Assembly: GCF_003334255.1 (NCBI RefSeq) | Contig: NZ_QOWU01000004.1 | Source of the DNA: Escherichia coli | GTDB taxonomy: Bacteria > Pseudomonadota > Gammaproteobacteria > Enterobacterales > Enterobacteriaceae | Reading direction: 5' to 3' (one strand) | DNA length: 64,000 bases | Shown here: piece by piece, positions 22,472 through 42,448 of the stretch | How the letters are laid out: each line of letters starts with the position of its first letter | Numbering within the stretch: the stretch's first letter is position 1 | Notes under the pieces: generated by a model | What the model was told of the DNA's origin: nothing | Database searches by the model: none | The model's input: the letters and a program-made list of their open reading frames with translations, nothing else | Program-made: the position numbers and the translations under genes

Positions 22472-23032
22472 TTACACTCGCCCCTTCCCTTTCAACCATT
22501 CGCGCACGAGGAACAGCGCACTGACATTGCGCGCTTCATTGAAGTCAGGGTCTTCCAGCAAATCCATCATATGCGCCAGCGGCCAGCGCACCTGTGGTAG
22601 CGGCTCTGGCTCATCGCCTTCCAGTGATTCCGGGTAGAGATCTTGCGCTACCACGATATTCATTTTGCTGGAAAAGTAAGACGGTGCCATGCTGAGCTTC
22701 TTCAAAAAAGTCAGATCGTTCGCTCCAAATCCAACCTCTTCTTTTAGCTCGCGGTTAGCGGCTTCGTAGACGCTTTCACCCGGATCAATTAATCCTTTCG
22801 AAAAACCTAATTCGTAGGATTCAGTTCCCACTGCGTATTCGCGGATCAGGATCAGGTGATCGTCCACAATCGGCACAATCATCACTGCTTCCCGGTTGGT
22901 TGGACGCATTCGTTCATAAACACGCCGCACGCCATTGCTGAACTCCAGATCCACGCTCTCGACGGTAAACAGTCGGGAACGGGCTACAGTTTCAACATTC
23001 AGAATGGTGGGTTTTTGTAATGATTTGCTCAT
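22472..23032 (-). CDS. nudE: ADP-compound hydrolase (Nudix)
   Basis: 186-aa ORF; Nudix box (GLIDPGESVYEAANRELKEEVG) visible. Confidence 0.95.
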   Translation of the reverse strand: MSKSLQKPTILNVETVARSRLFTVESVDLEFSNGVRRVYERMRPTNREAVMIVPIVDDHLILIREYAVGTESYELGFSKGLIDPGESVYEAANRELKEEVGFGANDLTFLKKLSMAPSYFSSKMNIVVAQDLYPESLEGDEPEPLPQVRWPLAHMMDLLEDPDFNEARNVSALFLVREWLKGKGRV

Positions 23033-37289: not shown

Positions 37290-39611
37290 ATGAAAAAATT
37301 AACCATTGGCTTAATTGGTAATCCAAATTCTGGCAAGACAACGTTATTTAACCAGCTCACTGGCTCACGTCAGCGTGTAGGTAACTGGGCTGGCGTTACC
37401 GTCGAACGTAAAGAAGGGCAATTCTCCACCACCGATCATCAGGTCACGCTGGTGGACCTGCCCGGCACCTATTCTCTGACCACCATCTCATCGCAGACCT
37501 CGCTCGATGAGCAAATCGCCTGTCACTACATTTTGAGTGGCGACGCCGACCTGCTGATTAACGTGGTGGATGCGTCTAACCTTGAGCGTAACCTGTACCT
37601 GACGCTACAACTGCTGGAACTCGGCATTCCCTGCATTGTGGCACTGAACATGCTCGACATTGCCGAGAAGCAAAATATTCGTATTGAAATTGATGCTCTG
37701 TCGGCGCGTCTGGGCTGTCCGGTGATCCCGCTGGTTTCAACCCGTGGTCGCGGTATTGAAGCGCTCAAGCTGGCGATTGATCGCTATAAAGCTAACGAGA
37801 ATGTGGAACTGGTGCATTACGCACAGCCGCTGCTCAACGAAGCAGATTCACTGGCAAAAGTGATGCCTTCCGACATCCCGCTGAAACAACGTCGCTGGCT
37901 GGGCCTGCAAATGCTGGAAGGCGATATCTACAGCCGCGCCTACGCCGGTGAAGCGTCGCAGCATCTGGATGCCGCCCTCGCCCGTCTGCGTAATGAGATG
38001 GACGATCCGGCGCTGCACATTGCCGATGCGCGTTACCAGTGCATTGCTGCCATCTGTGATGTGGTAAGCAACACCCTGACGGCAGAACCCAGCCGTTTCA
38101 CCACTGCGGTAGATAAAATCGTGCTCAACCGTTTCCTCGGTCTGCCGATTTTCCTCTTTGTGATGTACCTGATGTTCCTGCTGGCTATCAACATCGGCGG
38201 GGCGTTACAGCCGCTGTTTGACGTCGGCTCCGTGGCGCTATTTGTGCATGGTATTCAATGGATTGGCTACACGCTCCACTTCCCGGACTGGCTGACTATC
38301 TTCCTCGCCCAGGGCCTGGGTGGCGGCATTAACACCGTGCTGCCACTGGTGCCGCAGATTGGCATGATGTACCTGTTCCTCTCCTTCCTTGAGGACTCCG
38401 GGTATATGGCGCGTGCGGCGTTTGTGATGGACCGTCTGATGCAGGCGCTGGGCTTGCCGGGGAAATCCTTTGTGCCGCTGATCGTCGGTTTCGGTTGTAA
38501 CGTACCGTCGGTAATGGGTGCACGTACGCTTGATGCACCGCGTGAACGTCTGATGACCATCATGATGGCACCGTTTATGTCCTGCGGCGCGCGTCTGGCT
38601 ATCTTCGCAGTATTCGCGGCTGCCTTCTTCGGGCAGAACGGTGCGCTGGCGGTCTTCTCGCTGTATATGCTGGGTATTGTGATGGCGGTGCTGACTGGCC
38701 TGATGCTCAAGTACACCATCATGCGCGGTGAAGCGACGCCGTTTGTCATGGAGTTGCCGGTCTATCATGTACCACACGTTAAAAGCCTGATTATCCAGAC
38801 CTGGCAGCGTCTGAAAGGCTTCGTTCTGCGTGCTGGTAAAGTGATCATCATCGTCAGCATTTTCCTGAGCGCTTTCAACAGCTTCTCGCTGAGCGGGAAA
38901 ATCGTCGATAACATCAACGACTCGGCGCTGGCGTCCGTCAGCCGGGTGATCACCCCGGTCTTCAAGCCAATTGGCGTGCATGAAGATAACTGGCAGGCAA
39001 CGGTTGGCCTGTTTACAGGTGCCATGGCGAAAGAAGTGGTAGTGGGTACGCTCAACACCCTCTACACCGCAGAAAATATTCAGGACGAAGAGTTCAATCC
39101 GGCAGAATTTAACCTCGGTGAAGAGCTGTTCAGTGCGATAGATGAAACCTGGCAGAGCCTGAAAGACACCTTCAGCCTTAGCGTACTGATGAACCCCATT
39201 GAAGCCAGCAAAGGCGACGGCGAAATGGGTACCGGGGCGATGGGCGTGATGGATCAGAAATTCGGTAGCGCAGCAGCAGCTTACAGCTACCTGATTTTCG
39301 TCCTGCTGTATGTACCATGTATCTCGGTGATGGGGGCTATCGCCCGTGAATCAAGCCGTGGCTGGATGGGCTTCTCCATCCTGTGGGGGCTGAATATCGC
39401 TTACTCACTGGCAACATTGTTCTATCAGGTCGCCAGCTACAGTCAGCATCCAACTTACAGCCTGGTGTGCATTCTGGCGGTTATCCTGTTTAACATCGTG
39501 GTTATCGGTCTGCTGCGCCGCGCGCGTAGCCGGGTGGATATCGAACTGCTGGCAACCCGCAAGTCGGTAAGCAGTTGCTGCGCAGCCAGCACCACCGGTG
39601 ATTGCCATTAA
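37290..39611 (+). CDS. feoB: Ferrous iron transporter B (N-terminal GTPase plus membrane permease)
   Basis: ORF track starts at GTG 37278; ATG at 37290 gives 773 aa; G1 P-loop (GNPNSGKTT) at the N-terminus and a polytopic membrane domain. Confidence 0.95.
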
Positions 39612-39847
39612 TGGCTTCACTTATTCAGGTGCGCGATTTGCTGGCGTTACGGGGCCGTATGGAAGCGGCCCAGATAAGCCAGACATTGAACACTCCACAG
39701 CCAATGATTAACGCCATGCTGCAACAACTGGAAAGTATGGGCAAAGCCGTGCGGATTCAGGAAGAACCTGACGGCTGCCTCTCTGGCAGTTGTAAAAGCT
39801 GCCCGGAAGGAAAAGCCTGTCTGCGCGAGTGGTGGGCGCTGCGTTAA
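39611..39847 (+). CDS. feoC: Ferrous iron transport protein C (winged-helix, Cys-rich)
   Basis: ATG at 39611 overlaps the feoB TAA by 1 nt (TAATG); 78 aa; four-cysteine motif [15 protein letters not shown] visible. Confidence 0.9.
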
Positions 39848-39870
39848 CCTTACTCCATCGCCTGTTTTGG

Positions 39871-39905
39871 AAAGCCCGGTATGCGTCTGCATCCGGGCTT
39901 TTTTG
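39871..39905 (+). terminator. Rho-independent terminator of feoABC
   Basis: aaagcccggtatgc-gtct-gcatccgggcttt followed by tttt. Confidence 0.85.
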
Positions 39906-40049
39906 CGTGCGGCTTTCCATAAAAATGCAACTCTTGCAGCACGGCGTAAGTTCCTTTGAAAGCATCTCGCAGGGATGAAAACTCGCTAATACACAGGTGT
40001 GGAGTGGCGCGTAGAGTCGCGGCATTCAAACAACAGGTGAAGGAACGCC

Positions 40050-40928
40050 ATGAGCAAAAAGCAGAGTTCCACCCCACACGATGCGCTGTTCAAACTCTTT
40101 TTACGCCAACCGGACACGGCTCGTGATTTTCTTGCGTTTCATTTACCGGCACCCATTCACGCGCTTTGTGATATGAAAACCCTCAAGCTGGAGTCGAGCA
40201 GCTTTATTGATGACGATCTGCGTGAAAGCTATTCCGATGTGCTGTGGTCGGTGAAAACGGAACAAGGACCAGGATACATCTATTGTCTGATTGAACATCA
40301 AAGCACCTCAAACAAACTGATCGCATTTCGCATGATGCGTTACGCTATTGCCGCAATGCAAAATCACCTTGATGCTGGATACAAAACGTTGCCGATGGTG
40401 GTGCCATTGTTGTTTTACCACGGTATTGAAAGCCCCTATCCCTATTCGCTGTGTTGGCTGGATTGTTTCGCCGATCCCAAACTGGCAAGGCAGCTTTATG
40501 CCTCCGCATTTCCGCTGATTGATGTCACCGTCATGCCTGATGATGAAATCATGCAGCACCGACGTATGGCGCTGCTGGAGTTAATTCAAAAACATATTCG
40601 TCAACGCGACCTGATGGGGCTGGTAGAGCAAATGGCCTGCTTATTAAGTAGTGGATACGCTAATGACAGACAAATCAAAGGGCTGTTTAATTACATACTG
40701 CAAACTGGCGACGCTGTACGTTTTAACGATTTTATCGACGGCGTTGCCGAACGTTCACCGAAACACAAGGAGAGTTTAATGACTATTGCGGAAAGATTGC
40801 GGCAGGAGGGGGAACAATCCAAAGCCCTGCATATAGCCAAAATAATGCTTGAATCCGGAGTTCCTCTTGCAGACATCATGCGCTTTACCGGGCTGTCAGA
40901 AGAAGAGTTGGCTGCGGCGAGTCAGTAA
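40050..40928 (+). CDS. rpnA: Recombination-promoting nuclease RpnA (YhgA-like, transposase_31 / PD-(D/E)XK family)
   Basis: 292-aa ORF ([28 protein letters not shown]...); the N-terminal region typical of the Rpn/YhgA family is recognisable. Confidence 0.88.
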
Positions 40929-40956
40929 AGTTCTGTCTCGCCATTTCAAAAGCCAC

Positions 40957-42448
<1,492 letters not shown>

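Follow-up and report, generated by a model that had tools for sequence, protein, structure and literature searches.

What does a gene whose protein family is named after a transposase do at one fixed place among housekeeping genes? The question is raised by rpnA (also yhgA) of Escherichia coli, which lies at positions 40050..40928 of a 64,000-nucleotide (nt) stretch of contig NZ_QOWU01000004.1 (hereafter referred to as the window). An earlier note, made from the letters of this DNA alone, described rpnA as a domesticated nuclease of the Transposase_31 family that sits alone between feoC and bioH and can promote RecA-independent recombination. Here we examine the locus by profile searches, structure prediction and comparison with 5,426 complete E. 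coli genomes, to which all population counts below refer unless another sample is named, and read the results together with the published biochemistry. We consider it very probable that rpnA is a self-contained toxin–antitoxin module in which one reading frame encodes two proteins, most likely a phage-defence nuclease, as judged from RpnP2, a homologue encoded on a plasmid. The gene, its enzymology, the nested antitoxin and the crystal structure of the antitoxin are already known, having been published for the identical sequence; what is mildly new is confined to the pattern across genomes, in which the nuclease core is lost and the antitoxin kept, and to two short PHROG families.

The nuclease and the antitoxin nested in its frame

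The window is essentially E. coli K-12 sequence, and the open reading frame (ORF) at 40050..40928 on the plus strand, which runs for 292 codons from ATG to TAA, is a real gene, the rpnA of E. coli K-12. Its coding sequence (879 nt) is 100% identical to that of MG1655 rpnA (yhgA, b3411), and the gene order feoC-rpnA-bioH is the same as in E. coli K-12. The protein scores 694.8 bits on the RpnA equivalog model NCBIfam NF007361 (cut-off 583, E 1e-209, positions 1-292 of 292) and 160.9 bits on TIGR01784 (cut-off 52.1), and it covers positions 1-202 of the 203 in Pfam PF04754 (Transposase_31, E 2e-91). The next best NCBIfam model, NF007418 'ISNCY family transposase', reaches 415 bits, below the cut-off of 583. 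The interval between feoC and bioH holds rpnA DNA in 5,425 of the 5,426 genomes, with a median of one place per genome. Because the NCBIfam and Pfam matches are strong and the context is the same in nearly all E. coli, rpnA is not a chance ORF. The exact coordinates, the gene name and the placement in the Transposase_31/Rpn family with a PD-(D/E)XK-type active site, all proposed in the earlier note, are thus borne out, and the hidden Markov model search that the note had put forward as a possible refutation placed RpnA in the nuclease family. The features that carry the argument are the following.

40050..40928, plus strand: rpnA (yhgA, b3411), encoding the toxin RpnA_L of 292 amino acids (aa); from the ORF, NF007361 and identity to MG1655
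40071..40676, plus strand: Transposase_31 / PD-(D/E)XK-like nuclease domain, aa 8-209; from PF04754
40236..40301, plus strand: active-site codons D63 (40236-40238), E82 (40293-40295) and Q84 (40299-40301)
40767..40772, plus strand: Shine–Dalgarno sequence AAGGAG of the internal start, formed by codons K240-E241, 6 nt before the ATG; from the sequence
40779..40928, plus strand: rpnA_S, an in-frame nested gene, M244-Q292, 49 aa; from the ORF, the Shine–Dalgarno sequence and identity to Protein Data Bank (PDB) entry 7TH0

RpnA_L is a Mg-dependent, Ca-stimulated and sequence-nonspecific DNA endonuclease (PMC5350276, PMC10400941). Kingston et al. 2017 mutated D11, D63, E82, Q84, R94 and D165 of the PDDE motif (PMC5350276), and all six residues are present in the RpnA of the window. 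In that study, the D11A, D63A, E82A and Q84K mutants lost recombination, toxicity and SOS induction altogether, Q84A and R94A lost the recombination phenotype only, and D165A rendered RpnA hyperactive (PMC5350276). Among 84 homologues with 29-92% identity, D63 is kept in 82, E82 in 81 and Q84 in 71. An AlphaFold model computed from the alignment of these 84 sequences, which came from a representative search, has a mean predicted local distance difference test score (pLDDT) of 91.2; a first run with 43 sequences of 59-99% identity gave a pLDDT of 57 and was discarded. The model contains strands at residues 40-47, 64-70 and 76-84, a helix at 91-108 and a further strand at 116-123, with D63 directly preceding the second strand and E82 and Q84 located within the third. 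In the prediction, this order of strands and helix corresponds to the layout expected for PD-(D/E)XK nucleases.

Comparisons with solved structures gave little for the nuclease domain. A Foldseek search with the RpnA model returned 7TH0 as the only PDB match with E <0.1, known PD-(D/E)XK nucleases being non-significant; a search with a family profile recovered no relative of the domain with known structure, and a 2026 copy of the PDB yielded no experimentally determined RpnL nuclease domain. According to the model, RpnA would share with TnsA of Tn7 and other PD-(D/E)XK nucleases the D...E-x-(K/Q) residues on an alpha-beta-beta-beta-alpha-beta core. The searches made gave no significant three-dimensional or sequence match between RpnA and a solved PD-(D/E)XK structure, and RpnA differs from TnsA in having Q84 in place of the lysine and in lacking both a partner transposase and transposon ends.

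The C-terminal part of the protein, by contrast with the nuclease domain, has an identical counterpart of solved structure. A PDB sequence search gave a single match, 7TH0 'RpnA-S', in which 49 of 49 residues are identical to RpnA 244-292, and the C terminus of the model superimposes on it with a template modelling score of 0.91 and a root-mean-square deviation of 0.5 A. In addition, the family PF27070 (HTH_Rpn_C) is recorded on the 99%-identical cluster representative of RpnA. The AAGGAG and ATG of the internal start also occur in the syntenic gene of Salmonella and in a Citrobacter koseri paralogue, and the column of M244 is methionine in 74 of the 84 diverse homologues (88%). Compared with shuffled controls, RNA near the internal start has less structure (z +1.45).

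The product of this internal start has been characterized by Zhong et al. (PNAS 2023, PMC10400941), who detected it by ribosome profiling and chromosomal tagging and abolished RpnA_S with the K240R+E241D+M244L mutant. RpnA_S is a three-helix-bundle dimer that binds RpnA_L. In the absence of RpnA_S, RpnA_L inhibits growth and cuts DNA strongly, and purified RpnA_S blocks this cleavage; the complex of the two has a mass of 74 kDa, consistent with an L2S2 assembly, and dissociates at pH 9-10 (PMC10400941). Nuclease activity, toxicity, inhibition by RpnA_S and stoichiometry have therefore all been published for a sequence identical to that in the window (PMC10400941). Since rpnA_S lies inside rpnA and its product inhibits RpnA_L, the functional unit is a two-protein toxin–antitoxin module, and the description of rpnA as sitting alone, a solitary gene, has to be given up: the in-frame rpnA_S at 40779..40928 encodes the cognate inhibitor.

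We accept with high confidence the published mechanism, in which RpnA_L is a toxic endonuclease blocked by its own independently translated C-terminal domain. According to this mechanism, the 292-aa RpnA_L breaks DNA as a PD-(D/E)XK-type endonuclease with little sequence specificity; the breaks cause toxicity and SOS induction, and a secondary effect of them, upon overexpression, is increased RecA-independent recombination. RpnA_S, the last 49 residues, is made from its own transcript through the internal ribosome-binding site (AAGGAG at 40767-40772, ATG at 40779); it dimerizes via its long first helix, joins RpnA_L as L2S2 and stops DNA cleavage. By analogy with RpnP2, a disturbance of the L–S complex would then leave RpnA_L active in phage defence or abortive infection.

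A comparison with classical type II toxin–antitoxin systems highlights what is particular to this arrangement. In both, a protein antitoxin that is small, helical and helix-turn-helix-like binds and neutralizes a protein toxin (PMC10400941). In rpnA, unlike type II systems, no separate adjacent gene supplies the antitoxin, which is instead the C-terminal domain of the toxin, made by independent translation in the same frame. The antitoxin lies within the frame of the toxin, so the two obligatorily co-evolve.

Variation in E. coli and its relatives

The rpnA gene is not intact throughout the species. The nuclease-core segment 40135-40555 is absent in 568 genomes and partly present in another 195, and coverage of the rpnA coding sequence falls below 80% in 764 genomes (about 14%), matching the deletion total, whereas the rpnA_S region and its 3′ flank are detectable in 5,421. 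Two deletions were defined by alignment (L002 1993-2367, L003 2007-2381 and L005 1232-1825). One, of 437 nt (40127-40563), is carried by FDAARGOS_1264 and GmM077, and a sequence type 131 (ST131) genome shows an identical coverage signature; 'clone D i14' has the other, of 254 nt (40080-40333). Both are frameshifting and eliminate D63, E82 and Q84, and both classes keep the 49-aa rpnA_S ORF and its ribosome-binding site, with 1-2 substitutions, those of the 437-nt class being L281V alone or L281V+M277I; in 'clone D i14', the Shine–Dalgarno sequence of rpnA_S reads AAGGTG. The deletion alleles carry the PGAP label of an N-terminally truncated pseudogene. The internal promoter presumably survives in them. 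The genomes with deletions probably trace to two clonal events, so the retention of the antitoxin is suggestive of selection rather than proof of it.

A third allele class, seen in about 17% of 60 systematically sampled genomes, differs at the other end of the gene. Here, 194 or 206 extra nt follow position 40811, as in the alleles of E2348/69 and fS10a (L004 1951-3063 and L006 1201-2301), and the resulting tail has 50 or 54 aa, the difference being the four residues TNAL. These alleles also hold a second, degenerate RpnS-like ORF of 32 aa with its own start (AAAGGATGGTTTTAATG, AAAGGATGG...ATG), which resembles an internal translation initiation site, and after this ORF a remnant of the K-12-type tail. 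This arrangement matches what PMC10400941 describes for rpnC and rpnE, namely downstream 'RpnSs' copies and fusions. The insertion point falls within a short segment that varies between strains and species.

40809..40832, plus strand: hypervariable point within RpnA_S helix 1, from after G254 to H261; 4-aa repeats or a swapped tail occur here in other strains and species

In close homologues, the commonest tail lengths are 49, 53, 57, 61, 65, 69, 73 and 77 aa, with an offset second series of 52 and 60 aa, and the allele in the window has the shortest tail, with 0 extra repeats. These lengths are the four-residue repeat variation of Rpn tails that has been published.

The Salmonella enterica chromosome carries an Rpn gene in the same feoC-bioH interval (P0070, 308 aa; L009 4001-4927), and an alignment shows that it is homologous to rpnA along the whole gene and the upstream region. 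This protein has 16 extra aa (48 nt; HRNG LQKG LQQG KQEG) directly after RLRQEG in RpnS helix 1, and it scores 442 bits on the RpnA equivalog model, below the cut-off of 583. Amino-acid identity between RpnA and the Salmonella protein is 65% overall (nuclease domain 68%, RpnS part 55%), whereas the neighbours retain 92.5% (FeoB), 88.5% (FeoC), 79.3% (BioH), 83.3% (GntX) and 98.4% (NfuA). Thus, rpnA is the fastest-diverging gene of the neighbourhood (65% versus 79-98%).

The family has further members. RpnB (YfcI), RpnC (YadD), RpnD (YjiP), RpnE (YfaD) and the plasmid-encoded RpnP2 resemble RpnA in combining Transposase_31 with HTH_Rpn_C, in their catalytic residues and in having an internal Shine–Dalgarno sequence and ATG that yield an RpnS antitoxin (PMC10400941). 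Unlike rpnA, the paralogues, which are about 50-70% identical to it, are located elsewhere: an RpnB-type gene adjoins an ABC-transporter operon (annotated by Pfam domains only), and an RpnD-like gene adjoins a gene for a GntR-family regulator and a YjiS-like gene. RpnS action is cognate-specific among the Rpn proteins, and RpnA is the least toxic, with the shortest tail, in comparison with its paralogues. The top matches outside E. coli, in E. marmotae and C. koseri, were rejected as RpnA orthologues, their genomic contexts being RpnB-type and RpnD-like, respectively. Of 72,556 plasmid records, for the most part of conjugative plasmids among the positives, 4,812 carry family members with about 50% identity; of 50,697 phage records, only 11 do.

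Flanking signals and transcription

The neighbours of rpnA are all housekeeping genes (feoABC, bioH, gntX, nfuA, gntT and malQP), in agreement with the earlier note, and its G+C content is 47.6%, compared with 52.8% for the window. Upstream, the last base of feoC is 39847, and the terminator of its operon comes next. Downstream, bioH (40957..41727, minus strand) converges on rpnA, with 28 nt separating the two stop codons. The signals recognized around the gene are the following.

39871..39904, plus strand: intrinsic terminator of feoABC, with the stem AAAGCCCGG/CCGGGCTTT (39871-39901) and six T (39899-39904); from the sequence and a terminator scan
39990..40017, plus strand: candidate weak sigma-70 promoter for full-length rpnA, TACACA-16 nt-TAGAGT, 8/12; from a relaxed scan
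40916..40942, plus strand: hairpin across the rpnA stop codon; RNA fold of 40900-40990, -27.3 kcal/mol, z -1.81

The feoABC terminator, which sets the 5′ limit of the rpnA unit, is kept in the Salmonella alignment. Given its position, the 'own upstream region' of rpnA (39906..40049) is therefore the stretch from the terminator to the start of the gene, and a ribosome-binding site, AAGGA (40040-40044), lies within the 145 nt that begin at 39905 and run to the start codon. A standard scan with a threshold of 9/12 found no sigma-70 promoter in 39600-41100; the -10-like block GCGCGTAG.GT of the candidate promoter recovered by the relaxed scan is conserved in Salmonella. Transcription of the antitoxin gene is documented by differential RNA sequencing (dRNA-seq), which placed a transcription start site inside rpnA (PMC10400941). 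At the 3′ end, a scan of the gap between rpnA and bioH detected no canonical terminator, and the hairpin at 40916..40942 may act as a weak or bidirectional 3′ end signal. The rpnA-bioH pair is named among overlapping convergent transcripts ('excludons') (PMC12288877). Comparing the entire window with Rfam at the gathering thresholds gave 0 matches, and thus no known RNA element in or near rpnA.

A repeat search of 39600-41400 found no inverted or direct repeats bracketing rpnA beyond chance-level matches of 10-20 nt. The longest inverted pairs measure 12-20 nt and are 74-92% complementary, with at least one arm in a coding region or in the feoC terminator. The earlier note had reported that neither inverted repeats nor a partner transposase are evident, and both statements hold.

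Three observations concern strain differences around the gene. Over the surrounding 40.9 kb, the window and the MG1655 record NZ_CP012868.1 differ at nine single bases (window positions 22486, 24391, 34706, 36497, 45282, 51047, 55837, 57200 and 58619), 0 of them in rpnA. The annotation of the laboratory strain ME8067 (L001 3449-3674) gives feoA as frameshifted, but the MG1655 record matching the window has an intact feoA. FDAARGOS_1264 (L002) lacks 14 nt, corresponding to window 39922-39935 just 3′ of the feoC terminator, which are kept in GmM077.

Role of the chromosomal module

We infer both the antiphage role of RpnA itself and its trigger in vivo. Analogy with RpnP2, together with the rapid diversification of the tail and the spread of homologues on plasmids, makes phage defence the best-supported inference for the role of chromosomal rpnA; low G+C content, fast divergence, tail lengths that change in 4-aa steps and plasmid homologues are features typical of defence genes. 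The remark in the earlier note that the physiological trigger is unclear still holds, and the question is now narrowed to what frees RpnA_L from RpnA_S.

Several observations weigh against this interpretation. Phage protection has been measured for the plasmid homologue RpnP2 only and not for chromosomal RpnA (PMC10400941), and native RpnA_L went undetected by immunoblot under the growth conditions tested (PMC10400941). With its housekeeping neighbours, rpnA lies outside any defence island, and neither RpnA_L nor RpnA_S has a match (0 in total) in PADLOC-DB v2.0.0 (2023), a database that may predate the report on Rpn. About 14% of complete E. coli genomes have lost the nuclease core, and the toxin is thus dispensable. 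Finally, a relaxed sigma-70 scan found no convincing promoter upstream of the internal start, so the existence of an internal promoter rests on the published dRNA-seq.

Two short phage or prophage protein families of the PHROG collection, phrog_5416 (a 66-position profile, E 7e-8) and phrog_12274 (138 positions), match only the RpnS or C-terminal part of the protein (RpnA_S, 40779-40925). Judged from these profile matches, they hint at free-standing RpnS-like proteins in viral data, which could be decoys against Rpn nucleases; a tblastn search of phage records with RpnA_S returned only the tails of full-length rpn genes. It is conceivable, though we think it improbable, that the orphan RpnA_S present in about 14% of genomes is kept by selection, either as immunity ('anti-addiction') against incoming RpnA-type toxins or as a helix-turn-helix-like regulator, and that the short PHROG families are decoys on the phage side.

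The alternative that fares best regards rpnA as a selfish addiction module in slow decay that brings the host no benefit; losing the antitoxin first would be lethal, so erosion would proceed from the toxin end. In its favour, two distinct frameshifting deletions (437 and 254 nt) hit the nuclease core and spare rpnA_S, a region detectable in 5,421 of 5,426 genomes, and native expression of RpnA_L is very low (PMC10400941). However, about 86% of E. coli genomes keep the gene intact and Salmonella has a counterpart in the same position, pointing to long persistence. Across the family, both the active-site residues and the internal start show strong conservation, and the homologue RpnP2 provides measurable phage protection (PMC10400941). 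We regard purely selfish decay as possible but unlikely.

Rather doubtful is the proposal, which follows Kingston et al. 2017 and was the emphasis of the earlier note, that rpnA encodes a recombination-promoting housekeeping nuclease selected for RecA-independent uptake of foreign DNA. Overexpressed RpnA does increase RecA-independent recombination, active-site mutants lose that phenotype, and RpnA cleavage yields 3′-OH ends that a polymerase can use (PMC5350276). However, the phenotype was obtained with RpnA overexpressed under a rhamnose promoter, and RpnA_S was unknowingly made along with it; native full-length RpnA was undetectable (PMC10400941). A housekeeping function also sits poorly with the loss of the core in about 14% of genomes, and conflict-driven evolution is a better fit to the gene's rapid divergence and to the variation of its 4-aa repeats. 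The most economical reading is that RecA-independent recombination is a by-product of the breaks made under overexpression.

That rpnA is a domesticated or decayed insertion-sequence transposase, once or still mobile, is very improbable: the Pfam name Transposase_31, the 'transposase' annotation of PHROG phrog_3300, the label 'ISNCY family transposase' in some records (and the score of 415 bits on NF007418, although below its cut-off of 583) and a patchy family distribution that includes many plasmids speak for it, but the gene has neither terminal inverted repeats nor target duplications, is single-copy and occupies one site in 5,425 of 5,426 E. coli genomes, with a syntenic copy in Salmonella, and has ends that differ between strains (PMC10400941), and the PD-(D/E)XK fold is not known from any autonomous transposase (PMC10400941). 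Zhong et al. 2023 likewise argued that Rpn proteins are not transposases (PMC10400941). The 'domesticated transposase' of the earlier note is thus a label taken from the Pfam name and not a supported history.

With rpnA read as a toxin–antitoxin module, the alleles that have repeatedly lost the toxin half but kept the antitoxin, and the tail swaps at a fixed point of helix 1, constitute a natural experiment on the role of chromosomal Rpn modules. Furthermore, rpnA exemplifies how a 'solitary' ORF may conceal a second gene in the same frame, one that was missed both by a reading from sequence alone and by standard annotation.
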